A program made the translations under genes and the position numbers. A DNA stretch of 29,912 nt from IMG/VR virus record IMGVR_UViG_3300020576_003846, positions 1 through 29,912 of that record, one strand, 5' to 3'. Every line of letters starts with the position of its first letter. Within the stretch, counting starts at the first letter, position 1. The notes under the pieces were generated by a model. That model had not been told where the DNA came from. It did no database searches and was given only the letters and a program-made list of their open reading frames with translations. Below are positions 1,779 through 29,912 of the stretch, piece by piece. This DNA is from a virus.

Positions 1779-1992
1779 TTAGATTCCCTTCACCGTTGAA
1801 AGAGTCTGGACTGTAAACAAATAATACTATATGGCTAAGTATCACCGTTAGCATGACCGCAAAGGAGGCCTGCTTAAAGGTGTCGTATACCTCATTGCGC
1901 AACCCGCCAAATGCAATGAACGCAATAACGACAACAAGCAAAGTACCATGACGTGCGAAAAAGTTGCCAACAGCTGTTTTATCAATTTCCAT
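1693..1992 (-). CDS. Holin candidate with three predicted TM segments
   Basis: I prefer the internal ATG at 1992 (MEIDKTAV...) because GGGAG lies 5 nt upstream. Hydrophobic stretches are LLVVVIAFIAFGGL, FAVMLTVILSHIVLFVY and FNAVALLVGLVYAGSYFIAF. It sits directly upstream of, and overlaps, the endolysin gene. Confidence 0.5.
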   Translation of the reverse strand: MEIDKTAVGNFFARHGTLLVVVIAFIAFGGLRNEVYDTFKQASFAVMLTVILSHIVLFVYSPDSFNGEGNLNAKARIFNAVALLVGLVYAGSYFIAFSN

Positions 1993-2111
1993 ATTACTCC
2001 CAAATAAATAATTGTACTTTGTGCGAGGGCTGCCGTATGATACAGCCCCCAGCAAAGCACAATCTTAGTTGTGCTAAACGTACGCCACCACTTGCGTACA
2101 TGCTTCTACGA

Positions 2112-2579
2112 TTAACAAATCAGCTGCGCAACAACTCCCTTATCTGTTGCCGTGTACGGCCCGACATCGCCGCGACCAAGGAAGGCTACAGCTGCGCCGT
2201 AGGTTCCACTTGTGCCGTCACCTGCCGTTGCAACTAATTTAATGTATCGTTTTTTACCACGCAAGTCAACGAACCATTGGAAGATACCGTCGTCATCGGT
2301 GGCCGACGGCAAAGCAGACGTTCCACCTCCATCAACTTGCGGCAGCGAAGAAGTACCGTACACACTACCGGTAATATCGGTAGCCCCGCCCATGCCGCTA
2401 TCATCGGATTCAGTCAGCTTAAGTGCCGCCATTGCAATGTCGGTGGCACCCAAAGCAAAAGAAACAACGAGGTAATCATAACCGAAGGTATCAATTACCG
2501 TTGTCGTAAAACTTGCGTTGTCCTTTATCGCACCCGGTGGGCATGCGTTCACGACTTTTATGGATTGTAATTCAATCAT
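2112..2579 (-). CDS. Hypothetical virion protein downstream of the major capsid gene (possible head decoration or accessory protein)
   Basis: A 155-aa ORF with G/T/S/D-rich, beta-type composition. The call rests only on its position directly after the capsid gene. I recognised no motif. Confidence 0.3.
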   Translation of the reverse strand: MIELQSIKVVNACPPGAIKDNASFTTTVIDTFGYDYLVVSFALGATDIAMAALKLTESDDSGMGGATDITGSVYGTSSLPQVDGGGTSALPSATDDDGIFQWFVDLRGKKRYIKLVATAGDGTSGTYGAAVAFLGRGDVGPYTATDKGVVAQLIC

Positions 2580-2602
2580 ATTATTTCCCTTTGTAATAAA
2601 AA

Positions 2603-3949
2603 TTAAGAAGCTGCTGTAATCAGTCCAACGACAGGGCCGGCCTTGCGTGCTGAAGCCGTAGCCGATGCGTTACCTACGTCGTGAACAACGATGTCAACGC
2701 GCTGCGTTGTCTTGACGTAAACTGTATCAGAGAGGAAGCCCGCCGAATCATCGCGTTTCACTGCAATTTGTGAACGCCGCCCCATCGTTGAGGCTAGCGA
2801 CAGGTCACCAAGCAATGCGCATACCTGACTATTTGCCTCGACCTTCGGCATGGCATCCGTGAACACAACAGGAATGCCAAGAAGTTTAGCATTGCCAATA
2901 CCATTAACAAAGTCCATAGGCGTTACCCCTGAGGCAGCCATAATCAATCGCTCTGGGGCTGCTGCCCAAAACTGCCTACTCATGAACCAACGTGTATTGG
3001 CGGTATATCCTAAATTTGGCAACAAACCTTTTGCGGCTACGAAGTCTTCCATCGTTAGCTCAGAGTACGCATTGCCGCTACCGACCTTAAGACCTGCGAT
3101 ATGGGCAATCGTGTTGCTAAGTGATTTTAACCTCGTGGTAACCCCAACGATACCATCATAACTACTTGTACCATCACCAACGAAACCGGCTTCGTCAATT
3201 TTTTTAGCAGCAGCCCGCGCCATATCGCCGGCAAGGATATCGCCAATGCGGATGATTGCGTCGTCTTCTAACTCATTGGTAAACGATGCTAATGAATGAA
3301 TTTTTTTAGCAATTAATTTAATGCGATTAGTCAGGCTACCACTGTCCAAGCCCGATAACGACGAGGCTTCAGAACCCCAATAGGCCGTGGCGTTATCGGT
3401 GATGCGGATAACATCACGCGTATCCGAACCCATAGGCTCCACGCGTGTGTACTGCTCATATACGCCGTACTGCTCAATAAGGTGGATAACGTACGATGAC
3501 AGTTCATTTGGCACCAACGCGCCACCGAGTGCGTTGTCGTACTCAACGTTAAACGCTTTGGTGTTTATGTTCAAGTCGTTTAGCTTCGTCTTTGCTTTGT
3601 CGCTACCGCTCACAGCCATGCCGAAGAGGCCGAACTTATACGCGATTTCGTCAGAAGGTAAATTTTTTGCAATTACCTTAGATCCCCCTGTGGCGTATGG
3701 CATGGCCTTCACTTCAGGGGCAGGCGTTGGTAAGGTCTGCACATCGAGGGGGGGAGCAGCTTGGACGCTCTTTTTCTTTAGCTCTTCGAAGTTCTGCAAA
3801 GATTTGATTTCCGTTTTAACGGTTTCGATTTCACCCGCTAACTGTGCAGCCTGATCTGCCTGTACCGCCGTCGGTGACGGCAAAGCAAAGAGGGAATTGA
3901 GTTGAGACTCTAAATCTCTTTGCTTATCATGCATTTGTTGTATCGTCAT
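2603..3949 (-). CDS. Major capsid protein, HK97 fold family, with an N-terminal coiled-coil delta domain
   Basis: 448 aa. The N-terminal roughly 100 aa are helical (QQMHDKQRDLESQLNSL...EIETVKTEIKSLQNFEELKKK). The ALGGALVPNELSSYVIHLIEQYGVYEQYTRVEPMGSDT block is typical of the Phage_capsid (HK97) family. It lies directly downstream of a prohead protease. Confidence 0.85.
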   Translation of the reverse strand: MTIQQMHDKQRDLESQLNSLFALPSPTAVQADQAAQLAGEIETVKTEIKSLQNFEELKKKSVQAAPPLDVQTLPTPAPEVKAMPYATGGSKVIAKNLPSDEIAYKFGLFGMAVSGSDKAKTKLNDLNINTKAFNVEYDNALGGALVPNELSSYVIHLIEQYGVYEQYTRVEPMGSDTRDVIRITDNATAYWGSEASSLSGLDSGSLTNRIKLIAKKIHSLASFTNELEDDAIIRIGDILAGDMARAAAKKIDEAGFVGDGTSSYDGIVGVTTRLKSLSNTIAHIAGLKVGSGNAYSELTMEDFVAAKGLLPNLGYTANTRWFMSRQFWAAAPERLIMAASGVTPMDFVNGIGNAKLLGIPVVFTDAMPKVEANSQVCALLGDLSLASTMGRRSQIAVKRDDSAGFLSDTVYVKTTQRVDIVVHDVGNASATASARKAGPVVGLITAAS

Positions 3950-7933: not shown

Positions 7934-8341
7934 TTAGTCTCCAGTAGCTCCATAATTTTTACCTTTATTAGTTAGGTTATAACAGTCCATTAATACAGAG
8001 TAGGGAGCTTCTATCTCCTGAGCTATACTCCTGAGGCCTGGTAGTAACATTAAAGAGGCTGGCTCATTTATCATAAATTCAAAGGATATAGCCCAAAGGA
8101 TAGAGCTATACTGGTCTGAGCCTAAACATCCGCTCCAGGTCTTAGGTAGTCCAAAATCTTGAGGTTTAATCTGTAGGAGGTCTTTATATTTTGCTCCCTC
8201 CTGTAGGGCTTTCTCTAAGGCTCTAAAGTATTTACTATATCTGGAGCTTATTACTGTCTCCTCTAAGCCCTCCAGCGTCTCCTTTGTAATCCCTGTAAGT
8301 TTCTGTTTGTATGGGAATTTATGTTTAATCTCACTAATCAT
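7934..8341 (-). CDS. Hypothetical protein encoded on a compositionally foreign (CpG-poor, lower-GC) island between terS and terL
   Basis: A 135-aa ORF. Its ATG at 8341 overlaps the terS stop by 8 nt. Arg is encoded by AGA here, versus CGN elsewhere in the genome. I recognised no motif. Confidence 0.55.
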   Translation of the reverse strand: MISEIKHKFPYKQKLTGITKETLEGLEETVISSRYSKYFRALEKALQEGAKYKDLLQIKPQDFGLPKTWSGCLGSDQYSSILWAISFEFMINEPASLMLLPGLRSIAQEIEAPYSVLMDCYNLTNKGKNYGATGD

Positions 8342-8669: not shown

Positions 8670-9124
8670 AGTCTTAGTGCTCCTTAGCGAATATAATCAT
8701 TGCATAGCAAAAAAGCAAGCAAATTGATAAAATTTTTATCGCCATGATGATTATTTCGTTTTCAAACACAGCAAGCAAAACTTCCTTTTATGACGTTCAT
8801 TATAATTCAGACCTGTTTTTCAGACTTTCTATAATAATTATATTAAATATATTTATATTAAATTGGGTTACAATAAGGAAGTATAATAATAATATTAGAG
8901 AAAGTCTGCAAAACCCCCATTAATCGTAATAAATCATCATGATGTTAAATTTGTTTATATCATCTGGCGCAAAAAATGCCTCTTGCGGAACTTCTATGCC
9001 TATATTCACCATGTTTTTACGACGTTATTTTTAATTTTTACAGAAAAAACCATTTTTTTACCCTTTGTAACCCATTGGTTTCAAACGACTTGTTAAATTT
9101 ATGACGAAAAAACGAAAAAAATAC

Positions 9125-9154
9125 TTGACAAATGCGGAAAATTCAGTAGTTTTG
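9125..9154 (+). promoter_or_regulatory. Candidate early promoter for the rightward operon
   Basis: TTGACA at 9125..9130, a 16-nt spacer, then TAGTTT at 9147..9152. It lies upstream of the AAGGAG RBS (9180..9185) and the ATG at 9192. The -10 element is weak, so this is tentative. Confidence 0.35.
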
Positions 9155-9191
9155 TGGTGTAATAAAAAACACACAACACAAGGAGTTAACA

Positions 9192-9644
9192 ATGAGCACA
9201 ACATACTACAAATTCGAAAACTGCTACCTATGCTGCCAACAAGGACACTTTAGCGTGGTGTTTGGCACCCCAAATGCAACAGTAAATGACCTCGTACGCA
9301 CCCTAAATGAAGGTGGTACCTATGAGTTTGAACAGGCTTATGAACTTATTGAGGCCCGTGAAGTGCCAGAGCCTCCCACGCCGGTATCTGAAGTTGTTGA
9401 AGAATTTTTAAACAACGAAGATATTGAATATAGCGAATACCGCGCATCCACAGGGTCTACATATATAACAGTGGTTAACGAAGATGACGAAGCCGTGGTT
9501 ATCCGCATAGCCGACCACCTCGAGTGCTACCCGCCAAACCGCACCATAGTAGCGCAGGTAACAATTAACAGGAATGAAACTAATCACGCAGAAATTAAAA
9601 CAGCAGTGGCAGCGGTTATTGCCAAGATTGGATACACTTTATGA
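9192..9644 (+). CDS. Hypothetical early protein
   Basis: A 150-aa ORF with a strong AAGGAG RBS. It is the first gene after the control region. No motif recognised. Confidence 0.6.
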   Translation: MSTTYYKFENCYLCCQQGHFSVVFGTPNATVNDLVRTLNEGGTYEFEQAYELIEAREVPEPPTPVSEVVEEFLNNEDIEYSEYRASTGSTYITVVNEDDEAVVIRIADHLECYPPNRTIVAQVTINRNETNHAEIKTAVAAVIAKIGYTL

Positions 9645-9868
9645 CGACGCTTACCAACATGCGCACCGGTGAAATTCACAGTTTTGCTACACAAATGGAG
9701 TACGTTCAGTTTCTGATGGAGCTGCAAAAAATATACGGAAAGCATACCAAGTTTGCAGATGGCGTAATAACGTACTATTACTCCAACGACCGGTACAGCC
9801 CTGCGCGTAAGATTCGCGCAAGGTTTAAGCTTGAGTGGACAGAAGAGAACGATAACGACACCAACTAA
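9641..9868 (+). CDS. Hypothetical early protein
   Basis: A 75-aa ORF coupled to the upstream gene by an ATGA overlap at 9641..9644. No motif recognised. Confidence 0.5.
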   Translation: MTTLTNMRTGEIHSFATQMEYVQFLMELQKIYGKHTKFADGVITYYYSNDRYSPARKIRARFKLEWTEENDNDTN

Positions 9869-9897
9869 CTTTATTTCACAAACTACAAGAAGCACTC

Positions 9898-10449
9898 ATG
9901 AAAAACAATGAAAGCAAGTTATCCGCCGAAGATATAGAACAGGGGCTAACAAATGGAGACAAGTACATACGTAGAGCGTTTGCCAAGCGCACCGACTACA
10001 CACCCACGCCGGAGCAAATCGAACGTGGGCTAACGGACACCAGCGAGTATGTGCGCACAGCGTTTGCCGATCGCAGGGACTACACACCCACGCCGGAGCA
10101 AATCGAACGTGGGCTAACGGACACCAGCGAGTATGTGCGCATTGCTTTTGCCTATCGTGGCGACTACACGCCGACGCCGGAGCAGATCGAACGTGGGCTA
10201 ACGGATGTTGAGTGGAACGTGCGTGTAGAGTTCGCGTGGCGCAGGGACTACACGCCGACGCCGGAGCAGATCGAACGTGGGCTAACGGATGAGAATGCTG
10301 ACGTGCGCCTTGCGTTTGCGGAGCGCACCGACTACACACCCACGCCGGAGCAGATAGAGCGTGGACTAACGGATGTTGAGTGGTTCGTTCGCACAGCGTT
10401 TGCGCTACACGCAAAGCGTGATGCAGAGCAAAGGAAAGAAGATAACTAA
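9898..10449 (+). CDS. Alpha-solenoid-type repeat protein, copy A (six 28-aa HEAT/LRV-like repeats)
   Basis: After MKNNESKLSA the protein is E-x-IE-x-GLT(D/N)-xxxx-(V/I)R-x-(A/E)FA-x-R-x-DYTPTP repeated with an exact 84-bp period. The D-xxxx-VR-x-A-x-A core resembles PBS-lyase/EZ HEAT and LRV repeats. Confidence 0.8.
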   Translation: MKNNESKLSAEDIEQGLTNGDKYIRRAFAKRTDYTPTPEQIERGLTDTSEYVRTAFADRRDYTPTPEQIERGLTDTSEYVRIAFAYRGDYTPTPEQIERGLTDVEWNVRVEFAWRRDYTPTPEQIERGLTDENADVRLAFAERTDYTPTPEQIERGLTDVEWFVRTAFALHAKRDAEQRKEDN

Positions 10450-10478
10450 CTTTATTTCACAAACTACAAGAAGCAATA

Positions 10479-10919
10479 ATGAAAAACAATGAAAGCAAGT
10501 TATCCGCCGAAGATATAGAACGTGGGCTAACAAATGGAGACAAGTACATACGTAGAGCGTTTGCCAAGCGCACCGACTACACGCCGACGCCGGAGCAAAT
10601 CGAACGTGGGCTAACGGATGTTGAGTGGTTCGTTCGCACAGCGTTTGCGGAGCGCACCGACTACACGCCGACGCCGGAGCAAATCGAACGTGGGCTAACG
10701 GATGTTGAGTGGTACGTTCGCACAGCGTTTGCGGGGCGCAGGGACTTCACGCCGACGCCGGAGCAAATAGAACGTGGGCTAACGGATGTTGAGTGGTACG
10801 TGCGTGTAGAGTTCGCGTGGCGCAGGGACTACACGCTGACGCCGGAGCAGATAGAGCGTGGACTAACGGATGTTGAGTGGTTCGTTCGCACAGCGTTTGC
10901 GCTATGCGCAAAAGCGTGA
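10479..10919 (+). CDS. Alpha-solenoid-type repeat protein, copy B (five 28-aa repeats), tandem paralogue of copy A
   Basis: It has the same 5' leader and first 10 codons as copy A and the same repeat architecture, with one unit fewer. An extra A (A4 at 10910..10913 versus A3 at 10413..10415) ends the frame 9 codons earlier than in copy A. Confidence 0.8.
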   Translation: MKNNESKLSAEDIERGLTNGDKYIRRAFAKRTDYTPTPEQIERGLTDVEWFVRTAFAERTDYTPTPEQIERGLTDVEWYVRTAFAGRRDFTPTPEQIERGLTDVEWYVRVEFAWRRDYTLTPEQIERGLTDVEWFVRTAFALCAKA

Positions 10920-10977
10920 TGCAGAGCAAAGGAAAGAAGATAACTAACTTTATTTTTCACCATACATAATAAAAACA

Positions 10978-11802
10978 ATGTTACGATCATCTGAATTAGC
11001 AGCAGCCTTAGGCGTTGCCAAGTACACAACGCAGCGCGAGTTGTGGGAAAGACGGCAGGAAGGCTATGAGCCACCTGCCGACGACTTAGCCCGCCGCATG
11101 GGACGCCGTATGGAGCAGGCAGTGCTAGATGAGTACGCCGAGCGCCACGGCGTAATAATAGATACGCCGCAGGTAGCAGAGCGTGGGATTATCCGCGGTA
11201 TAGCTGATGGCGTAGACAAGCTAAATAAAGTCATAATAGAAGCTAAAACAACAACAAGCTATGCCCGCAAATCATGGGGGGATTGGCTATTGCCTGACTA
11301 CTTTTGGCAAGTGCAAAGTTACATGTATCTTTACAACATGGATAAGGCAATAGTAGCCGTGTTCGAAACAGATACAAAAACCTACATGGAGTATAGCGTT
11401 GACTTTGCGCATGGCTTTGACGAGGCCTTAGCGGCAGCGACAAAATTTTACAGTACATATTTAGCCGAGCCTAATTTACCTGCACCGCCGGATACCGTGA
11501 TGCAAAGTGAACCCGGTAAACAGTACAACGCAGATGACGATACCGCTGAAAAATGGGAGCAATACAGGTACGCTAAGGAACAAATAAAAGTTTACGAATC
11601 GCAAGCGGACGAAGCGTTGACCTACATAACCGCCGCGATGGGAGACGCTGAAACCCTTGTTGTTGCGGGTTTGGCGGTAGCCACGTACAAAAGTAGCACA
11701 GTAAAAAGGGTTGATATCGCAGCCCTGCCTGAAGACATTAAAGAAAAATACACAAAGCAAAGTGAAGTACGTACGTTTAGAATAAAGAGGGGACGCGCAT
11801 GA
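10978..11802 (+). CDS. YqaJ-type viral recombinase exonuclease (PD-(D/E)xK, lambda Exo-like role)
   Basis: SSELAAALGVAKYTTQRELWERR...RMGRRMEQAVLDEY...GIADG...IIEAKTT...YFWQVQSYMYL follows the YqaJ domain pattern. It is coupled by ATGA to the recT gene downstream. Confidence 0.8.
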   Translation: MLRSSELAAALGVAKYTTQRELWERRQEGYEPPADDLARRMGRRMEQAVLDEYAERHGVIIDTPQVAERGIIRGIADGVDKLNKVIIEAKTTTSYARKSWGDWLLPDYFWQVQSYMYLYNMDKAIVAVFETDTKTYMEYSVDFAHGFDEALAAATKFYSTYLAEPNLPAPPDTVMQSEPGKQYNADDDTAEKWEQYRYAKEQIKVYESQADEALTYITAAMGDAETLVVAGLAVATYKSSTVKRVDIAALPEDIKEKYTKQSEVRTFRIKRGRA

Positions 11803-12758
11803 CACCGCAGGAAATAATAAAGCAGCAGGCAGAGCAGCAGCGCAAACAGGTAGTAAATGCGATATTAAAGCAAATTAGTGGCGTCGTAGCAAGTGGCTAC
11901 ACGCTCGACGATTGGGCAAAAATTGCCGTTGACGTGTTTGCGACAAATCCAAAACTCGTGACGTGTAGCACCGTATCACTTATCCGCGCTTTTTCGGATG
12001 CGATGGAAGCAGGTTTGCGGCCAAACAGTAAGGAAGGTTATTGCTACATAATTCCATTCAGAGGTGAGGCAACCTTTGTCATGGGTTATTACGGACTGCT
12101 CGAGCTTGCTTACCGCACCGGTATGGTGCGTGACATACGGGTGCAACTGGTGTATGCAAATGATGAATACAGCTCGGAAACACAAAACAACGCAATAGTG
12201 ATAAACCACAAATATAACTCTATGCAACCTATCGCAGATCGTGGTAAGTTAATTGGTGGCTATGCGATATTGCGCACCGTTAATGACGGCACATACACGA
12301 CTGAACTAAGCTACGAAGAATTAGAACAACGCCGCCTAATGTCTCCCGCCGCCGAACTCGAAGTGTGGCGCAACAATCGAACTGAAATGTACAAAAAAAC
12401 ATTACTAAGGAATTTAATAAAATATGTTAGAAAACAATGGGAAGACAGAAGCCCATATACAGCGGCAGGTGGTGAATTGGCTGCTACAAAACAGGTGGAT
12501 AGTGATCCGAATCAACTCCCTACGGATGCGCCACCTTGTGAGTTACGTAGTATATCCGAAGAGCCTAACAACGGGGCTGCCGGATCTATTAGCCTACCGG
12601 TCTGGGATGTCGGTATGGATCGAAGTGAAGGCAGCGGAGGGCCGTCTGTCACCGTCGCAAAAAAACACGCAAAAAATACTAACCCATTACAGGTGGCTGG
12701 TGCTGACGGTCAGCTCGGTGGAAGAGTTGGAAGCGAAAATAAAGGAGGTGGAAAATGA
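11799..12758 (+). CDS. recT: RecT-family single-strand annealing protein with an unusually long low-complexity C-terminal tail
   Basis: NPKLVTCSTVSLIRAF..AMEAGLRPNSKEGYCYIIPFRGEATFVMGYYGLLELAYRTGMVRDI...VYANDEY...MYKKTLLRNLIKY are RecT-like blocks. The last ~110 codons overlap the VRR-NUC ORF in another frame. The stop forms an ATGA junction with the next gene. Confidence 0.8.
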   Translation: MTPQEIIKQQAEQQRKQVVNAILKQISGVVASGYTLDDWAKIAVDVFATNPKLVTCSTVSLIRAFSDAMEAGLRPNSKEGYCYIIPFRGEATFVMGYYGLLELAYRTGMVRDIRVQLVYANDEYSSETQNNAIVINHKYNSMQPIADRGKLIGGYAILRTVNDGTYTTELSYEELEQRRLMSPAAELEVWRNNRTEMYKKTLLRNLIKYVRKQWEDRSPYTAAGGELAATKQVDSDPNQLPTDAPPCELRSISEEPNNGAAGSISLPVWDVGMDRSEGSGGPSVTVAKKHAKNTNPLQVAGADGQLGGRVGSENKGGGK

Positions 12759-12771
12759 AACTGAAAGATAA
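12424..12771 (+). CDS. VRR-NUC domain nuclease (PD-(D/E)xK)
   Basis: EAHIQRQVVNWL...GLPDLLAY...VWIEVKAAEGRLSPSQK...LVLTVSSVEE matches the E...GxPD...ExK...LSxxQ layout of VRR-NUC proteins. AAGGA lies 12 nt upstream of the ATG. The ORF lies in the +1 frame inside the recT ORF. Confidence 0.75.
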   Translation: MLENNGKTEAHIQRQVVNWLLQNRWIVIRINSLRMRHLVSYVVYPKSLTTGLPDLLAYRSGMSVWIEVKAAEGRLSPSQKNTQKILTHYRWLVLTVSSVEELEAKIKEVENETER

Positions 12772-13027
12772 ACTAAAACATTATCTACAAGTTTACAGGG
12801 TGCGCAGGCTGACGCATGAATCGGCTCGCGCCCTCTACAAGGCTGCCAAGTATGGCTTGCGGATAACGTACCCGTATAAAGTTATCAAAAGCACAAGTAA
12901 AGCGGAAAACCTTATGCGGATACGCCGTAAAGAATTTACGCACATGGCGGAACTGCATGAGCAGAAGGCAGCCCTTTATCGCTCCTTAGCCGAGTTAACC
13001 ATCGACACCGACAACGAAAAAAAATAA
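12755..13027 (+). CDS. Hypothetical basic helical protein
   Basis: A 90-aa ORF with a strong AAAGGAGGTGG RBS. No motif recognised. Confidence 0.5.
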   Translation: MKLKDKLKHYLQVYRVRRLTHESARALYKAAKYGLRITYPYKVIKSTSKAENLMRIRRKEFTHMAELHEQKAALYRSLAELTIDTDNEKK

Positions 13028-13063
13028 CTACATTTACAAACATATTTACACAAAGGAAAAAAA

Positions 13064-13465
13064 ATGAGTTCAATTAGCGTAACGATGCGCGGAGTAATTG
13101 CCGATAGCACCCCAATCGAACATACCAAATACGGTTCACGAATGAAGCTAACAATATTGGTGGGTTATGGCGAAGAGCGTGAAAATTACTACCAGATAGA
13201 AGTAAAAAAGGATGCAATAGTTGCCCTCATTACCACACTGCCCATAGGTGCCGAAGTGATAGCAAATTGTAGCTTGCGCGGTATCAAGTACCAAAAGAAG
13301 AGTGACGGCAACACAGCGTATTTCACTACGCTTGAGTGCTGGAAGTTAGAGCCCGTAAACAATGCGGCAACACAAAGCGCACCTGCCGCCGCCCTGTTCG
13401 ATGGGCCAACGTCGGAAAACCCGTTTCCGCGTCCACAGGAGACGAATGAAGATATAAGTTTTTAA
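13064..13465 (+). CDS. ssb: Single-stranded DNA-binding protein-like (OB fold, acidic C-terminal tip)
   Basis: At 133 aa, the beta-rich N-terminal ~100 aa are followed by a P/A/Q-rich linker and a terminal ETNEDISF that resembles the SSB DDDIPF tip. It lies within the recombination/replication block. Confidence 0.5.
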   Translation: MSSISVTMRGVIADSTPIEHTKYGSRMKLTILVGYGEERENYYQIEVKKDAIVALITTLPIGAEVIANCSLRGIKYQKKSDGNTAYFTTLECWKLEPVNNAATQSAPAAALFDGPTSENPFPRPQETNEDISF

Positions 13466-13482
13466 TATGACAGCGCGGACCA

Positions 13483-14874
13483 ATGCAGCTAAGAGAGTAT
13501 CAAAAAAATTTAGTAGGTGACGTTTACACCGCATGGCGTGCGGGTTTCCGCAGGGTATGCATGCAGTTGGCAACAGGTGGCGGCAAGACGGTTGTTTTCG
13601 CTGCCATCTGTGCCGACGCGGTAGCCTCTGGACGTAGGGTGCTGATACTTGTACACCGTGAAGAAATACAACAACAAGTGGTGGCAACACTTACTAAATT
13701 TGGTTTACAACCGCATTCATTATATGCCGGTGGCGATGTGTATGAGGCCGCCCAAATCGTTGTCGCTATGGTGCAGACAGCCGTACGCAGGCATTACATT
13801 CATGCCGATGTGGTCATCGTGGACGAGGCACACCACGCAGCTTCAAAGTCGTACGAAGAGTACCTAAATAAATATACCGATGCACTGGCACTTGGCGTAA
13901 CGGCAACACCCGAAAGACTTGACGGCAAAGGTTTAGATAATCAATTTGATGAGTTGGTTTGCGGCCCGCAAGCAAAAGAATTAATTCGGTTAGGCTATCT
14001 TGTGGACGCAGATATATACGCCGTTCCGCTGCCAACGGATGCGCTAAAAAACGCTAAAATAAGTATGGGAGACTTCCGCAAAAGCGACGTCGAAAAGATA
14101 ATGAAAAATAATATAGTTTATGGCGACGTTGTTAATACGTATTTGGACTGTGCCGATGGGGCGCAGGGCATCGTCTTTGCCAGCAGTATAGACCTTGCCA
14201 CGTCCTACGCAGCGGAGTACGCTGAAGCAGGCATACCTTCAAAATTAATACATTCCAAGATGCCGCCAGCAGAGCGAAAAAGCAATGTAAATTTATTTCG
14301 CAAAGGGAAAATAAAAATACTCATTAACGTAGCGATTGCAACCGAAGGGTTCGACGTCCCGCAATGCGATTGCGTGCAGATGCTTCGTCCTACGGCCTCT
14401 TTAACGTTGTACTTGCAGATGGTAGGTCGCTCATTGCGCCCGGCCAACGGTAAACAAAGTGCTATAATATTAGACCATGTGGATAATGTACGCAGGCATG
14501 GAGTGCCAACGGCAGACAGGCGGTGGAGTTTGCGCGGCAAAAGTTACCGTGAGCGTGAAGAACTACCAGAACTCATAGAAGTAGAGGGTTTGCCGGACTT
14601 GGACGGCACCACAACAGGGCGGATGATAGAACACAAAAGAGCAGTAAAACTTGTGCCTATTCACCGCGCTCACCGTGACCCTCTGCCCGCACAATTGCGC
14701 GCATTGGCAAACGGTGCGAAAGAATATAAATTTATCAACCACAGCTATATAATAAAACGATGGCGTGAATTAGGTGGCGAGCCTACGCCGGATATTATCA
14801 GGGAGTACGCAACTGAATTCGGCCTCCCGTATGATTGGCAAATCAACACACTATTACTAACGAAATTTAGCTAA
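13483..14874 (+). CDS. Superfamily 2 DEAD/DEAH-box helicase
   Basis: LREYQ is followed by motif I ATGGGKT, motif II VIVDEAHH, motif III TATPERLDG and motif VI LQMVGRSLR. Confidence 0.85.
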   Translation: MQLREYQKNLVGDVYTAWRAGFRRVCMQLATGGGKTVVFAAICADAVASGRRVLILVHREEIQQQVVATLTKFGLQPHSLYAGGDVYEAAQIVVAMVQTAVRRHYIHADVVIVDEAHHAASKSYEEYLNKYTDALALGVTATPERLDGKGLDNQFDELVCGPQAKELIRLGYLVDADIYAVPLPTDALKNAKISMGDFRKSDVEKIMKNNIVYGDVVNTYLDCADGAQGIVFASSIDLATSYAAEYAEAGIPSKLIHSKMPPAERKSNVNLFRKGKIKILINVAIATEGFDVPQCDCVQMLRPTASLTLYLQMVGRSLRPANGKQSAIILDHVDNVRRHGVPTADRRWSLRGKSYREREELPELIEVEGLPDLDGTTTGRMIEHKRAVKLVPIHRAHRDPLPAQLRALANGAKEYKFINHSYIIKRWRELGGEPTPDIIREYATEFGLPYDWQINTLLLTKFS

Positions 14875-14880
14875 AGTCTT

Positions 14881-17358
14881 ATGGAATACAAAGAATTTAC
14901 AGATTTGTTTTATCAGCAGGGGTTGCAGGTTATTCCGTGCGGAGCTAACAAGAGGCCAACAGTAGACCGGTGGCGTGACGTGGAACTGCGGCAAATTGGT
15001 GAAGAATTACTTGCGTCAGCAGGCTGCATTGCGATACGTTGTGGCGATGGCGTAGAGTGTTTAGACTACGATAAAAAAAATGATGATGGCGACAACTTTG
15101 GTGAGGCCATGAAGTTGCTATCTGAAGACTTGTATCAACGGCTATACATAGAGTCCACGCCGTCTGGCGGTAAACATATTTGGTATAGATGTGCAGATGC
15201 TTCGTACGGGAATCAAGTATTGGCCCAGAGCGCAAATGGCCGCAGCACATGGGAAACACGCGGTGATGGTGGTTATGCAATAGTAGCACCCTCACCGGGT
15301 TACGAAGTTCTGCAAGGTGATTTGACCGTGTTTATCCCGGAAATCACAAGGGCAGAGCGCGATATGCTTTTTACGGCTGCCCGTGCACAAAATAAATTCG
15401 TTCAAGCCATGCTGCCAGAATCTAAAGACGGCATTGAAAAAAAAGCGAAGAGCATGCAACAAGGTTATTTGATTGGTTACTCACCTTTTGATGAGTACGA
15501 CCGCCGTGGCGAAGCCTTGCCCCTGCTGTTAGAACATAAATGGGAAATAACCGGCAAACGTAATGAAGTGTATTACTTGCGCAGGCCAGGCAAAACAGAA
15601 GGGGCACATAGTGCTACCTTAAATTATGTTGGTAAAAACATACTGTACGTATTTAGTACCGACGCGCAACCCTTCGAAGCGCAGCGAAGTTATAGACCTT
15701 CGGACATATACATACAGTTGGTTCATGGCGGCAACATCGCCGCAGCCCTTGCAGACCTTGCGGAACAAGGGTACGGCACAGCAGGCACCGTTGGCACCGA
15801 GTACGAACGCATAGCACCGGATACCGCTATGGCGTATATTATGCGAGGGCAAGAAGGGTTTGCAGACCTCATCACCGACCTGCATGGTGGCAAAGTAACG
15901 CCCTCAAAATTTGCAGCGGGTCGGGTCATGTATGTTGCCGCCGAACATTGCTGGTACATATTCACGAACCCAGCTAATATCAGAGTTTACGACCCTGAAG
16001 ACCCGCATAACCAATGGTTTCAAGACGGTGCGGAGCCAAATATTGTGCGTGCGCTGGTAGTAGATTCAGCGATAAATATTTGTACTATTGCAATTACCTA
16101 TTATGGTGAGTTGCTAAAATCAAATACGCTTGAGGGCTATGAGTTTCAGTTCGCTGAAAAAGCCTACCAGAGAGCGCAAAAAGCACTCACAAAAATTGAA
16201 GATAACGCAAGTTATGTAACGGGAATATTAACGCGCTACCGGTCGCGAGTTACAACTCGTGCCGTAAGTTGGGACGCAAACCCCGAAGTTATCGCCGTTG
16301 CCAATGGCTTACTAAGCCTTACTGACCGCAGCATAAGGCCGCAACTGCCATCCGACTACGTGCAGACCACCGCACCGGTGGAGTACGACAGAGCAGCTAC
16401 CGCGCCAACGTGGGAGCGCGTGTATTCTGATATTATCGATGATTACAAATCGGAGCAATGGTTCCGCCGTTGGCTTGGTTACTGCTTATCGGGTCATATT
16501 AAAGAACACTATCACCCTATACTTTACGGGGCTGAGGGGCGCAATGGGAAAGACACGATAATAAACGCTATTAGTGCGACTCTCGGTGGCTACACCGGTC
16601 AGGTGTCCCCTGCTGCCCTTATGGTTCGCAGTAGTAGCGTTGGTAGTGCTACTCCCGAAATCATTGACTTGCAGGGAAAGCGGATAGGGTGGCTTAATGA
16701 AACCAACGAAAGCGATAAAATAAATTTGGCATCGTTAAAACAACTCTCGGGTTCGCAAACCCTCAAAGGTCGTGCGTTGTATCGTGGTTATGTTGAGTTT
16801 CGGAACACAACGAAGATACACACGGTTACTAACGCTTTGCCCCGCATTAACGCCGACGATTCGGCCACGTGGGCAAGGCTTGTAGTAATAGAATTTAGAA
16901 GACGTTATTTCAGCTCGGACCATCCGGACTATGACCCCGACAACCCACTGCATGGCATAGCGGATAAAGACCTATCTGATAAACTTCGCAATGAAACAGC
17001 AGGCATATTAAATTGGCTTCTCGATGCTTATGCCGAATACCGTAAACACGGTTTAGGTGCGCAACCCGAAAGCATGCGCGAAGCGTTAAAGGTGTACCGT
17101 GCGGACCAAGATAGTATAGGTATGTTTGCCGGTGAGTGCTTGCGCGAGGCACAGGGTACCGAAGAAAGACACAAAAATATTTACATGGCGTATTTGCGTT
17201 GGTGTAAAGATTTACAAATACAACCACGCACAAGTAACGCGGTATCGCGAGCCTTGCAAGGTATGGGCTACCAGAGAGCAAATAGAGGTGGTATCATCTG
17301 CTGGCGTGATATTGCGCTGAAGCCAGACTTCGAACCGGTACCAATTTTCAACAACTAA
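14881..17358 (+). CDS. Bifunctional primase-polymerase (Prim-Pol N-terminal domain) fused to a D5/P4-family SF3 helicase
   Basis: The N-terminus has GLQVIPCGANKRPTVDRW...GGKHIWY...GYAIVAPS. The C-terminal half has Walker A LYGAEGRNGKDT, Walker B-like IGWLNETNE, and the ARLVVIEF block typical of phage/plasmid P4-type primases. Confidence 0.85.
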   Translation: MEYKEFTDLFYQQGLQVIPCGANKRPTVDRWRDVELRQIGEELLASAGCIAIRCGDGVECLDYDKKNDDGDNFGEAMKLLSEDLYQRLYIESTPSGGKHIWYRCADASYGNQVLAQSANGRSTWETRGDGGYAIVAPSPGYEVLQGDLTVFIPEITRAERDMLFTAARAQNKFVQAMLPESKDGIEKKAKSMQQGYLIGYSPFDEYDRRGEALPLLLEHKWEITGKRNEVYYLRRPGKTEGAHSATLNYVGKNILYVFSTDAQPFEAQRSYRPSDIYIQLVHGGNIAAALADLAEQGYGTAGTVGTEYERIAPDTAMAYIMRGQEGFADLITDLHGGKVTPSKFAAGRVMYVAAEHCWYIFTNPANIRVYDPEDPHNQWFQDGAEPNIVRALVVDSAINICTIAITYYGELLKSNTLEGYEFQFAEKAYQRAQKALTKIEDNASYVTGILTRYRSRVTTRAVSWDANPEVIAVANGLLSLTDRSIRPQLPSDYVQTTAPVEYDRAATAPTWERVYSDIIDDYKSEQWFRRWLGYCLSGHIKEHYHPILYGAEGRNGKDTIINAISATLGGYTGQVSPAALMVRSSSVGSATPEIIDLQGKRIGWLNETNESDKINLASLKQLSGSQTLKGRALYRGYVEFRNTTKIHTVTNALPRINADDSATWARLVVIEFRRRYFSSDHPDYDPDNPLHGIADKDLSDKLRNETAGILNWLLDAYAEYRKHGLGAQPESMREALKVYRADQDSIGMFAGECLREAQGTEERHKNIYMAYLRWCKDLQIQPRTSNAVSRALQGMGYQRANRGGIICWRDIALKPDFEPVPIFNN

Positions 17359-29264: not shown

Positions 29265-29912
29265 TTAGTAAACTAAATCAGTAAAGTGAATATCTGCAAG
29301 CCAACGCATGGACGTTGCGGCAAGGCCGGTACAGGTAATGATAAGGCCCGCCGCCGCTGATGTTGCGGCAGCCATACTAACAGCAATTGTTCCGGTAGTG
29401 CGGTGTACTACTGTGACATTGCTAACATCTAGAACACCTGTGTTAACTGTTGCGCCGTAGCGTAAGACACCATCAACTGCGAAGACTGCGGATTCGTTAG
29501 TTGCGGAATTACTACGGCACACGACGTAACCACGGAAAGGAATTGTACTTGTTAGCTGACACTCAAGGGTTGCCATAGCAAGGGGAGTGGCGTTAGCCGT
29601 CGTTGCAAATTTCTGCGACTGCCGCGACTGCGCTACCCCGGTGCCGCCACCGCCATCATAGCCGACGACGAAATCGGATGAATTCAAGGCTTTTCCATAC
29701 CCCCCCCCCACCGTCGCGTAACCCCGTGCGTTTGTGGTGTTACTTGCCCCGCCTATCACTGCTGAATACTGCCCGCTTGCGGTATTACTTGCCCCGCCTA
29801 TCACTGCTGAATACTGCCCGCTTGCGGTGTTGCTCGCCCCGCCGCCGATGGCTGCGTAATACGCGCTTGCGGTGTTGCTCGACCCGCCGCTAATGGTAGA
29901 GGCTTGCCCGCT
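29265..29912 (-). CDS. Tail fibre protein, 3' part (repeat region plus a C-terminal ~165-aa globular domain)
   Basis: The frame is open from the right edge: SGQASTISGGSSNTASAYYAAIGGGASNTASGQYSAVIGGASNTASGQYSAVIGGASNTTNARGYATVGGGYGKAL...DLVY, with the stop at 29265. The track's GTG start at 29804 is internal. The frame phase matches the 1..721 part when 1-37 is overlaid on 29876-29912, giving 1332 nt or 443 aa in total. Confidence 0.75.
   Translation of the reverse strand, partial: SGQASTISGGSSNTASAYYAAIGGGASNTASGQYSAVIGGASNTASGQYSAVIGGASNTTNARGYATVGGGYGKALNSSDFVVGYDGGGGTGVAQSRQSQKFATTANATPLAMATLECQLTSTIPFRGYVVCRSNSATNESAVFAVDGVLRYGATVNTGVLDVSNVTVVHRTTGTIAVSMAAATSAAAGLIITCTGLAATSMRWLADIHFTDLVY
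29741..29912. repeat. Tandem 45-bp coding repeats of the tail-fibre gene (three full units plus the 37-nt unit shared with the window start)
   Basis: 29741-29785 and 29786-29830 differ at one base. 29831-29875 is diverged. 29876-29912 is identical to 1-37. Confidence 0.9.

Follow-up and report, generated by a model that had tools for sequence, protein, structure and literature searches.

The alphaRep proteins are artificial consensus designs modelled on a natural archaeal or bacterial family. Their 31-residue unit has a D..VR..AA.ALG core and forms a hairpin of two helices, and the hairpins stack as a right-handed solenoid (Mth187-type; PDB 3LTJ, 3LTM, 4JW2 and 5DCQ), an arrangement that is also predicted for the proteins described here. 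In solved complexes alphaRep positions 18, 19, 22, 23 and 26 make up the concave binding face (PMC3754942). The leucine-rich repeat variant (LRV) protein of Azotobacter vinelandii (PDB 1LRV) has a unit of 24 residues in which alpha and 3-10 helices alternate, and carries a 4Fe-4S domain at its N-terminus, while canonical HEAT repeats (Pfam PF02985, e.g. the PP2A A subunit) have units of ~37–47 residues with longer, kinked helices. Tandem arrays of paralogues with a fixed scaffold and variable recognition residues are exemplified by the poxvirus ankyrin genes, the Legionella Dot/Icm repeat effectors and the TALEs; the likeness of these to the present locus is one of analogy only, drawn from solenoid architecture and not from a comparison of sequence or fold.

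The sequence studied (termed the window) is the 29,912-nucleotide viral record IMGVR_UViG_3300020576_003846, positions 1–29,912. It contains two adjacent genes whose products are built from a repeat with a period of exactly 28 residues. The features of the locus are collected in Table 1.

RESULTS

The repeat genes and their operon

Table 1. Features in and around the repeat locus, in window coordinates
Feature	Position	Strand	Details and basis
Divergent intergenic region, presumed promoter region	8670–9191	.	A+T-rich, GC 0.38–0.42; ORF map
First ORF of rightward operon, 150 aa	9192–9644	+	AAGGAG ribosome-binding site upstream
Second ORF, 75 aa	9641–9868	+	Not kept in relative with 86% capsid identity
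Cassette junction and leader, copy 1 (ACTAACTTTATTTCACAAACTACAAGAAGCA...)	9864–9897	+	Exact 13-mer, leader alignment
Repeat gene 1	9898–10449	+	183 aa, pI 4.75, net charge -11
Cassette junction and leader, copy 2	10445–10478	+	Alignment and motif search
Repeat gene 2	10479–10919	+	146 aa, pI 4.97, net charge -5
Out-of-frame remnant of gene 1 tail (GATGCAGAGCAAAGGAAAGAAGATAACTAA) and third junction motif	10920–10955	+	Tail alignment, motif search
YqaJ/RecE-like recombination exonuclease	10978–11802	+	Pfam YqaJ E 9.9e-10, PHROG 434 E 3e-39
RecT-like single-strand annealing protein	11799–12758	+	Pfam RecT E 1.7e-31, PHROG 148

The divergent intergenic region separates a leftward packaging/head operon from a rightward replication/recombination operon, of which the repeat genes are the third and fourth ORFs, with the exonuclease gene immediately downstream. 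The first ORF of this operon has no match in Pfam or NCBIfam, and is 55% identical to the first ORF of a related phage (L137). A scan for promoters and terminators performed no better than on shuffled sequence: the sigma-70-like matches were weak, no convincing promoter emerged and no terminator lies in between. Early expression of the two genes, predicted from position alone, is plausible.

Both paralogues are present as described in the original prediction. Starting at the N-terminus, the product of gene 1 comprises 10 residues, five full 28-residue units (encoded at 9928–10347), a truncated unit that starts at 10348 and, at the C-terminus, a capping helix. That of gene 2 contains four full units (10509–10844) followed by one truncated unit. 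The final unit of either gene matches the repeat for 20 residues and then diverges. Tandem repeat analysis (TRF) places an 84-bp array at 9975–10901 with 11.1 copies and a score of 706. All 11 units are in register, with zero indels inside gene 1 or gene 2, although their number and order are uncertain, since the contig is built from short reads and three independent assemblies of related phages break within this gene. The prediction had counted six and five exact 84-bp units; the register stands, and the count becomes 5+1 and 4+1 on account of the truncated last units. A 172-aa ORF on the minus strand (9896–10414) is a by-product of the repeat, the homologues matching the plus frame only.

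The duplicated element is the entire cassette and extends beyond the ORF. Its 13-mer junction ACTAACTTTATTT has three exact copies, at 9864, 10445 and 10943, for which 0.06 are expected by chance. Both genes were said to share an identical leader and first 10 codons; the codons are indeed identical, while the leaders differ at two bases before the ATG (C vs A at 9895 and 9897). Compared with the tail of gene 1, gene 2 has one extra A (CAAAG to CAAAAG), and this +1 frameshift leads to an early stop and a shortened C-terminus. The gene 1 tail persists out of frame after gene 2, spanning 10920–10947. Gene 2, truncated by the frameshift, may be decaying.

Comparison with related phages reveals turnover at the locus. 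In a phage with a 99% identical capsid (L139) the second unit carries VEWF in place of the TSEY seen in the window. In two phages with 86% capsid identity (L137 and L138) an unrelated Cys-rich repeat gene fills the same slot. The genome of a relative that is more distant by capsid (L140) is laid out differently and is thus uninformative on the slot. Together with the unit alignment and the cassette junctions, the comparison of near-identical phages supports diversification by duplication or replacement of units and cassettes; unit shuffling and duplication had been proposed earlier.

Predicted fold

AlphaFold2 (AF2) models of the two proteins have pLDDT values of 96.7 (gene 1) and 96.3 (gene 2), with a pTM of 0.89. 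DSSP assigns two helices of 8–9 residues to each 28-residue unit, giving 12 helices in the model of the gene 1 product. The top Foldseek matches are all HEAT-like solenoids, led by alphaRep (3ltj, E 1.1e-4) and then 1lrv (E 1.7e-4), with the HEAT arrays of PP2A-A and Integrator also among the matches. The Foldseek superposition on 1LRV has a TM-score of 0.62 normalised to the query and an rmsd of 3.1 Å over 161 columns, with 26% identity. At the level of sequence, phmmer against the PDB finds an alphaRep (5dcq, E 4.6e-4). Both proteins exceed the cut-off of 23.5 bits for Pfam HEAT (PF02985), at 35.8 bits for gene 1 and 28.1 bits for gene 2, scores that are sums over the units, no single repeat passing alone. 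The HEAT/LRV-like solenoid expected from sequence is thus seen both in the models and in the profile matches.

No match to the window proteins was obtained with Pfam HEAT_PBS, HEAT_2 or HEAT_EZ, nor in searches of NCBIfam and PADLOC, and their PHROG matches are to families of unknown function only. Pfam LRV (PF01816) gave no match at E up to 1 with either protein. The period and the Pfam model both argue against membership of the LRV family, which was rejected; the window unit has 28 residues and two 8–9-residue helices, not 24 residues with alternating alpha and 3-10 helices.

AlphaRep is the best match in both sequence and structure. The motif D-xx-xx-VR-xx-(A/F)A-x is common to the two, as is the core D-xxxx-VR-xx-FA-x-R. 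The window unit has 28 residues in place of 31, identity is only ~20%, and the inter-unit linker reads D-Y-T-P-T-P-E-Q in the window in place of G-D-E-R-A in alphaRep. The 28-residue family has no dedicated description in Pfam, NCBIfam or PHROG, and no literature on it was found.

Fixed and variable positions

The variable positions of the unit are 10–13, 16, 17, 20 and 22, and the remaining 20 form the scaffold. On realigning the units, the residues at the four-residue patch and at the single variable sites are exactly those listed previously. Positions 10–13 take the forms NGDK, TSEY (twice), VEWN, ENAD, VEWF (three times) and VEWY (twice). Position 16 is R, T, I, V or L, position 17 is A or E, position 20 is K, D, Y, W, E, L or G, and position 22 is T, R or G. 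The skeleton had been called invariant. This holds with two exceptions, Y24F (unit 3) and P26L (unit 4), both in gene 2. Pairwise codon comparison gives 207 non-synonymous and 14 synonymous differences at the eight variable positions, against 66 and 171 respectively at the 20 scaffold positions.

The same partition is found family-wide. Among 181 units from homologues the entropy exceeds 3 bits only at 10–13, 16, 17, 20 and 22, so that the variation is restricted by position and not uniform, as had been anticipated. The conserved residues are E1, I3, E4, G6, L7, D9, V14, R15, F18, A19, R21, D23, Y24, P26 and T27, and these would provide the scaffold and the contacts from unit to unit.

Residues 12, 13, 16, 17 and 20 are predicted to share one face of helix B (i, i+1, i+4, i+5, i+8), an assignment based upon helix geometry and the AF2 secondary structure rather than on coordinates. 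They correspond to alphaRep positions 18, 19, 22, 23 and 26, which have the same pattern of variability in helix B and are placed likewise around the VR dipeptide. Together with the loop residues 10, 11 and 22, this face may align across the units as a continuous stripe rich in aromatic side chains.

Relaxed constraint would likewise produce strong variation at the exposed positions of a helix. Within 14 Gallionellaceae orthologues the entropy is 0.75 among orthologues compared with 1.81 between units; the unit-specific residues are kept, and these positions are therefore functional and not free to drift. The target of a diversity-generating retroelement (DGR) should lie close to a reverse transcriptase and a template repeat. 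No reverse transcriptase was found in the window ORFs scanned with PHROGs or Pfam, for which reason DGR-driven variation was rejected; the variation lies between tandem units, and not between a template and a variable repeat.

Homologues and their genomic settings

The family is a small one, with 568 clusters in 1.84 billion. The representatives of these clusters, and 131 homologues from a word index, share the unit TPEQIERGLTDxxxxVRxxFAxRxDYTP, and the 28-residue spacing is found in 273 of ~320 inter-unit intervals. Its members are not peculiar to phages. By megablast and tblastn neither the region nor gene 1 had a match in 50,697 phage records, and the family is absent from cultured phages. 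In IMG/VR there is essentially no match: a related-locus search there with gene 1, the exonuclease and the first ORF confirmed nothing, a DNA pattern for PEQIERGLTD had 0 matches, and one for QIERGLTD had two single matches, neither confirmed by the unit HMM. The PLSDB plasmids gave one weak Deinococcus match only, an exact-sequence look-up of gene 1 gave no match, and a metagenome scan with RecT returned just two short contigs, both starting downstream of the repeats. The best matches in BFVD are phage proteins annotated as 'leucine rich repeat variant', already present there and uncharacterised.

The family lies mostly beside DNA-transfer genes of mobile elements, and is nearly restricted to the mobile elements found in iron- and sulphur-oxidising Proteobacteria. 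Close relatives, 62–63% identical, adjoin the relaxases of conjugative or mobilizable (plasmid- or ICE-like) elements. In two loci (L001 and L002) the repeat genes are flanked by TrwC and T4CP, and in another (L009) DotM_C and a relaxase are close by; the repeat gene is flanked by Rep3 and MobA/MobL (L029), or by RepB primase and DUF3854 (L044). The relatives often form arrays of 5–18 paralogues with array-specific conserved C-terminal tails, which are acidic (e.g. ...DDFDDSSIL) or basic (e.g. ...RKKKVL). The tails resemble export signals, which is suggestive only, and translocation is putative. In the analogy with Legionella-type effectors, the ICE-borne relatives have their conserved tail beside genes for T4SS coupling proteins, whereas the phage copies have no such tail.

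Other members are cellular. The Gallionellaceae have a single conserved chromosomal copy, a four-unit protein. Its locus, with chorismate synthase on one side and an oxidoreductase on the other, is conserved in at least 10 genomes. Long cellular members have an N-terminal 4Fe-4S ferredoxin domain, as does 1LRV and unlike the window proteins; the cellular members are fused to 2[4Fe-4S] ferredoxin or cytochrome c, and in some homologues the fusion partner is an RNA polymerase alpha C-terminal domain. The conserved chromosomal copy and the ferredoxin fusions mean that somewhere in the family there is a housekeeping role. A sequence search with a ferredoxin-fused member did not find 1LRV, and one distant long homologue (P0190) is the sole member that matches Pfam LRV.

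DISCUSSION

The explanation that best accounts for the locus, to which we assign as a whole a probability of about one half, is as follows. Genes 1 and 2 are genuine and encode small, acidic, cytoplasmic proteins of alpha-solenoid type with a 28-residue helix-turn-helix unit. The HEAT-like family to which they belong is undescribed and is akin in fold to the alphaRep-type repeats and the LRV protein. They occupy a swappable accessory slot of the replication/recombination operon. The locus evolves through cassette duplication, the duplication or replacement of units, and frameshift. As the most likely mechanism we infer that the variable stripe binds another macromolecule stoichiometrically, probably a protein. 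The proteins would help a newly arrived mobile element to establish: they would neutralise a defence or host factor, or turn a host machine to other ends. The analysis shows the genes, their fold, the pattern of variation, the turnover and the link with mobile elements, whereas binding, timing, target and role are inferred. Establishment is the best guess for the role because the relatives lie beside relaxases and form arrays with export-like tails. The role in anti-defence or host takeover for which the proteins had been put forward is a plausible candidate. Similarity to known defence or anti-defence proteins was not found by PHROG function, PADLOC or NCBIfam, and the literature on phage LRV or HEAT anti-defence proteins contained nothing relevant. 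Also counting against this explanation are the conserved chromosomal and ferredoxin-fused members, the lack in the window proteins of the tails that mark the mobile-element arrays, the possible decay of gene 2, and the fact that relaxed constraint could yield similar variability.

It could be instead that the genes were captured from a host, or mimic a host gene, being derived from a protein like the four-unit Gallionellaceae orthologue. They might then act as an auxiliary or competitor, such as an adaptor for a redox or Fe–S partner, and not in anti-defence. We consider this unlikely, although several observations are in keeping with it. The phage proteins are 64–67% identical to the Gallionellaceae orthologues over 109–110 residues, with GLTN.D..IR in the first unit and FADR in the second common to both, and the GC content of the repeat region is 54% vs ~48% for the phage. 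The conserved housekeeping locus of the chromosomal copy and the cellular fusions to ferredoxin or cytochrome c point the same way. Yet phage and host units differ at the specificity positions, and the relatives on plasmid- or ICE-like elements are similarly close. Near-identical phages show duplication and unit turnover, which suggests that the target changes and is not fixed.

More improbable is that the locus is an artefact or in decay, gene 2 being a non-functional frameshifted duplicate, or the number and order of the units having been misassembled from short reads, or both. The frameshift strips gene 2 of its C-terminal cap, three independent assemblies of related phages terminate within the repeat gene, and the window itself is cut off at its ends in another tandem repeat. 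Against this, the gene 2 ORF is intact, with purifying-type codon patterns and a confidently predicted fold. The cassettes differ at many sites, in ways not explained by identical repeats collapsing or expanding, and the three copies of the junction motif are what a true tandem duplication predicts.

The position of the genes directly upstream of the YqaJ exonuclease and RecT in the same operon, as gam is placed in lambda Red, might indicate an accessory of the recombination module: a Gam-like inhibitor of RecBCD or AddAB, possibly a DNA mimic. The proteins are acidic, and their relatives accompany the machinery of incoming DNA (relaxases). Nevertheless, the link to recombination genes is absent from every homologue context examined, the same slot in a related phage holds an unrelated protein, and the scaffold of each unit has a net charge of only about -1, a long way from Ocr or ArdA. 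Across the family the pI lies anywhere between 4.2 and 11 (median 5.9), so acidity is not a family trait. Since neither charge nor context is conserved, this was rejected as the main reading and is very doubtful. A modular reader of nucleic acid, taking one base or step per unit as in TALE, PUF and PPR proteins, would fit the near-identical units varying at few fixed positions, the RNA polymerase alpha fusions and a weak Pfam match to the HEAT-like DNA_alkylation family (E 0.009), but is extremely unlikely given the net negative charge, variation at eight positions of each unit instead of one or two, a W/Y/F-rich stripe that resembles protein-binding alphaRep surfaces, and just 5–6 units.

We return to the reading of the proteins as solenoid binders that aid establishment. 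The fold is already known, and it is the genomic behaviour of the family that is unusual, with near-confinement to mobile elements, arrays of up to 18 genes with array-specific C-terminal tails, and turnover of units from one near-identical phage to another. If the proteins do have targets in the host, phages and conjugative elements would share in them a new class of factors for establishment or counter-defence. The proteins would also offer a natural and very compact scaffold for binding, with specificity positions that match those engineered in alphaRep. A bolder and tentative extension, which we regard as rather unlikely, is that the ERGLTD proteins are a natural repertoire of modular binders that phages express early from an accessory slot and of which conjugative elements inject arrays of up to 18 paralogues through their T4SS by way of the conserved C-terminal tails. 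They would counter defences or seize host factors, with specificity rewritten by unit shuffling at eight fixed positions. Such a repertoire would be the counterpart in bacterial mobile elements of the designed alphaRep or DARPin binders. Acidithiobacillus ferrivorans DSM 22755 has several copies and is culturable, and the idea is thus testable. In the A. ferrivorans loci (L015 and L044) the large protein upstream of the repeat gene is a DUF3854/AAA protein and not a TrwC relaxase.

Organization of the repeat genes

The window contains two adjacent repeat genes on the plus strand, gene 1 (9898-10449, 183 aa) and gene 2 (10479-10919, 146 aa). Both are real, and the original prediction of tandem repeat genes is upheld with small corrections. 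TRF places them in an 84-bp array of 11.1 copies (score 706). The units are named by gene and order (g1u1 to g2u5), with residues numbered 1-28 within each. The predicted counts of six and five units stand if the last unit of each gene is taken as truncated: after a 10-codon start identical in both, five full units follow in gene 1, with a sixth matching the repeat over 20 residues, and four in gene 2, with one truncated unit at its end. A minus-strand ORF of 172 aa (9896-10414) was rejected as a by-product of the periodic sequence; the plus frame alone is backed by homologues. The kilobase containing the repeat genes (10001-11000) has a G+C content of 54%, against ~47-49% for most of the genome and 38-42% in the adjoining intergenic and leader region.

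Duplication has taken in the entire cassette. The sequence ACTAACTTTATTT occurs at all three junctions (9864, 10445 and 10943; 0.06 chance matches expected), and leader plus unit 1 match at 138/144 positions when the cassettes are compared. Over its first 60 nt the last unit is the same in both (g1u6 and g2u5, 0/60 nt differing), as are the 3′ tails save for one extra A in gene 2, which ends the ORF early, so that the former tail lies out of frame. Gene 2 may be decaying, or part of the array may be misassembled. At the DNA level the units show several layers of change. Between genes, g1u1 differs from g2u1 by 4 nt and g1u4 from g2u4 by 4 nt; within genes, g1u2 and g1u3 are duplicates 9 nt apart, and g2u2 and g2u3 are 5 nt apart. 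Unit g1u5, with the patch ENAD at positions 10-13, has no counterpart in gene 2. At positions 10-13, 16, 17, 20 and 22 codon-pair differences are 207 non-synonymous to 14 synonymous, and at the other 20 positions 66 to 171. Judging by the synonymous differences, at least some of the unit copies are not recent, and purifying selection acts on the scaffold in the plus frame.

Fold of the repeat proteins

The proteins almost certainly adopt a HEAT-like solenoid, as judged from predicted models, in agreement with the HEAT/LRV-like reading made from sequence. The AlphaFold2 model of gene 1, computed from an alignment of 42 sequences, has pLDDT 96.7 and pTM 0.89, and that of gene 2 pLDDT 96.3. In the gene 1 model each unit comprises helix A (unit positions 28-7) and helix B (12-19), and the units are followed by a long C-terminal capping helix. 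Foldseek matches the alphaRep protein 3ltj (E 1.1e-4) and the A. vinelandii LRV protein 1lrv (E 1.7e-4, rmsd 3.1 Å over 161 columns), and then the HEAT arrays of PP2A-A and Integrator. The best matches in BFVD are uncharacterised proteins, several labelled 'leucine rich repeat variant' and from uncultured Caudovirales. By sequence, both proteins exceed the Pfam HEAT cut-off, neither matches Pfam LRV, HEAT_PBS or HEAT_2, and the best PDB match is an alphaRep protein. The 28-residue unit falls between those of LRV (24 residues) and alphaRep-type HEAT-like repeats (31 residues), and belongs to neither by their own definitions. What is new is the 28-residue HEAT-like repeat family, not described before and unusual in its genomic behaviour; the fold itself is known.

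The variable surface

Variation is partitioned between scaffold and surface, both in the window and across the family. Across 120 homologues, which supplied 181 distinct full units, entropy rises above 3 bits solely at positions 10-13, 16, 17, 20 and 22, and is 0.3-1.5 bits at E4, G6, L7, D9, V14, R15, R21, D23, P26 and T27. The high-entropy positions are those variable within the window, which bears out the predicted restriction of variation and makes it a family property rather than a peculiarity of this phage. On an alpha helix (helix geometry, not model coordinates) positions 12, 13, 16, 17 and 20 lie on an arc at 0-140°, and the conserved V14, R15, F18 and A19 at 200-340°. Counted from the VR dipeptide, the first set corresponds to alphaRep positions 18, 19, 22, 23 and 26, which were selected for their hypervariability in natural sequences and which, in crystal complexes, make up the concave face that binds the target (PMC3754942). 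Of the 22 residues at positions 12 and 13 in the window, 6 are Trp and 9 are Tyr or Phe. The proteins are probably binders using this face (probability about 0.7), and would contact a macromolecule through the variable stripe.

Distribution of the family

The family is small. Searched exhaustively with HMMER, 1.84 billion representative proteins gave 568 matches at E ≤1e-3 and 55 at E ≤1e-30. NCBIfam and PADLOC hold no model for it, cultured phages gave no match, IMG/VR essentially none, and plasmids one weak match. Among species-representative genomes, loci with several in-register matches occur in Acidithiobacillus ferrivorans, in Gallionella and other Gallionellaceae, and in Ferrigenium and other Nitrosomonadales. 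Homologues occur in three kinds of context, namely mobile elements, a single Gallionellaceae orthologue, and long cellular fusion proteins with cytochrome c or RNA polymerase alpha-CTD domains or with a 2[4Fe-4S] ferredoxin at the N-terminus (table).

The Gallionellaceae orthologue is a four-unit protein of 116-127 aa, whose gene is flanked by those for chorismate synthase and a Zn-dependent oxidoreductase in at least 10 genomes. Its unit-specific residues are conserved (mean entropy 0.75 bits among orthologues vs 1.81 between units), so that its surface positions are under functional constraint. It is 64-67% identical to gene 1. The main alternative for the phage proteins is a captured or mimicking version of this conserved host protein, acting in its cellular pathway.

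The family is also strongly associated with mobile elements. In A. ferrivorans five neighbouring repeat genes are flanked by TrwC relaxase and the TrwB/TraG coupling protein, and an unrelated metagenomic element (TrwC just 36% identical) has two at the same place. At other loci, 17 repeat ORFs adjoin DotM_C and a relaxase (L009), one gene has a Rep3 initiator on one side and a MobA/MobL relaxase on the other (L029), and another adjoins RepB primase and a DUF3854 protein (L044). Further arrays have 11 (L005), 10 (L134) and 18 consecutive genes, the last of ≤12 units each (L007).

Paralogues of one array differ in their repeat bodies and share an array-specific C-terminal tail of ~25 residues. 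Examples are ...NDEIEDFDDSSIL, ...FSEDxFSPSI, ...RHAxVTxxxRKLEAL, ...VRTVTQQLLMGL and ...QRIRKVL. Endings ...DDFDDSSIL and ...FSEDxFSPSI are acidic, ...RKLEAL and ...TQQLLMGL are further forms, and a basic ...RKKKVL is found on small 101-aa proteins. Tails that are acidic and have a hydrophobic residue close to the terminus are like Dot/Icm signals, and basic tails like VirB/D4 signals. By this analogy the tails may resemble export or T4SS signals, which we regard as a lead; conjugative T4SSs are reported to deliver plasmid proteins to recipients (PMC8406263). The gene 1 and gene 2 proteins have no array-type tail, as expected of proteins made inside the infected cell.

Features of the window, related phages and family loci
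Feature	Location or identifier	Strand
Leftward operon: small and large terminase, portal, protease, HK97-type capsid	8669 down to 718	-
Leftward operon continued across window ends: adaptor, tape-measure, tail genes	29804 down to 17605	-
Rightward operon: two unknown ORFs, two repeat genes, YqaJ/RecE exonuclease, RecT, VRR-NUC-like nuclease, SSB, helicase, primase-polymerase	9192-17358	+
CxxCxxC-repeat gene	L137:3-656; L138:3-179	-
Paralogue arrays (5 to 18 adjacent genes)	L001 9733-11849; L005 1531-11938; L007 4388-20225; L009 1113-17720; L134 183-15550	
Gallionellaceae genomes with conserved chromosomal copy	L035, L043, L056, L068, L077, L079, L080, L084, L089, L131	
Domain fusions: RNA polymerase alpha C-terminal domain (one or two copies); N-terminal 2[4Fe-4S] ferredoxin; cytochrome c; DUF4326	P0011, P0022, P0113; P0025, P0121, P0127, P0131; P0110; P0114, P0116	

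Setting in the phage genome

The window is a nearly complete tailed-phage genome of ~30 kb, in which leftward and rightward operons diverge from a 520-bp A+T-rich spacer. The repeat genes are the third and fourth ORFs of the replication and recombination operon, a place compatible with early or middle expression. A promoter scan performed no better than on shuffled sequence, and no plus-strand terminator lies between the repeat genes and those downstream. A Gam-like role for the adjacent recombination module is less likely than the host-protein alternative, as is a nucleic-acid code read by the repeat units. As binders, the proteins would act soon after entry and might serve establishment, by counter-defence or host takeover. 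That specific role, reasonably proposed in the original prediction and somewhat strengthened by the mobile-element contexts, is a candidate to be held tentatively at best.

Downstream, a 115-aa VRR-NUC/Holliday-junction-resolvase-like ORF (12424-12771, plus strand; PHROG 93, E 5e-14) shares the final ~335 nt of the RecT ORF (11799-12758, plus strand), in another frame. The Pfam RecT domain stops at residue 221 of 319, yet a relative with 69% identity (L133) aligns over the full 319-residue length.

The accessory slot in related phages

Cassettes and units turn over at the position following ORF2, the second ORF of the rightward operon. L139, from another sample and with a 99% identical capsid, has the same repeat gene there, preceded by the ORF2 context. 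This copy starts with GTG; its unit 1 is of gene 1 type and its unit 2 of VEWF type, vs TSEY in the window, and the contig stops there. L137 and L138 (capsid 86% identical) keep ORF1 (55% identity) and not ORF2, and their third slot encodes an unrelated protein of at least 218 aa, nearly all CxxCxxC repeats (GCKGCTDCTGC...) and without a Pfam match, within which both contigs end. The unit change and the replacement together mark the slot as accessory and fast-changing. Assemblies regularly break at repeat genes in the slot, and the exact unit order in the window should be read with caution.

Both window ends (1-175 and 29732-29843) lie in 45-bp tandem repeats of one minus-strand structural gene, running from ~29804 down across the end to ~1 and encoding 15-residue SGGxxNTASGxxSTI repeats. 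Its halves are 77% and 56% identical to a 469-aa protein of L137, with a weak ice-binding-like Pfam match. The frame is not kept on joining the ends, so the contig probably broke inside this second array. Between its small and large terminase genes L139 carries an RyR-domain gene and an N6/N4 DNA methyltransferase (1840-3325), at the place where the window shows just one 135-aa ORF, of unknown function (7934-8341).
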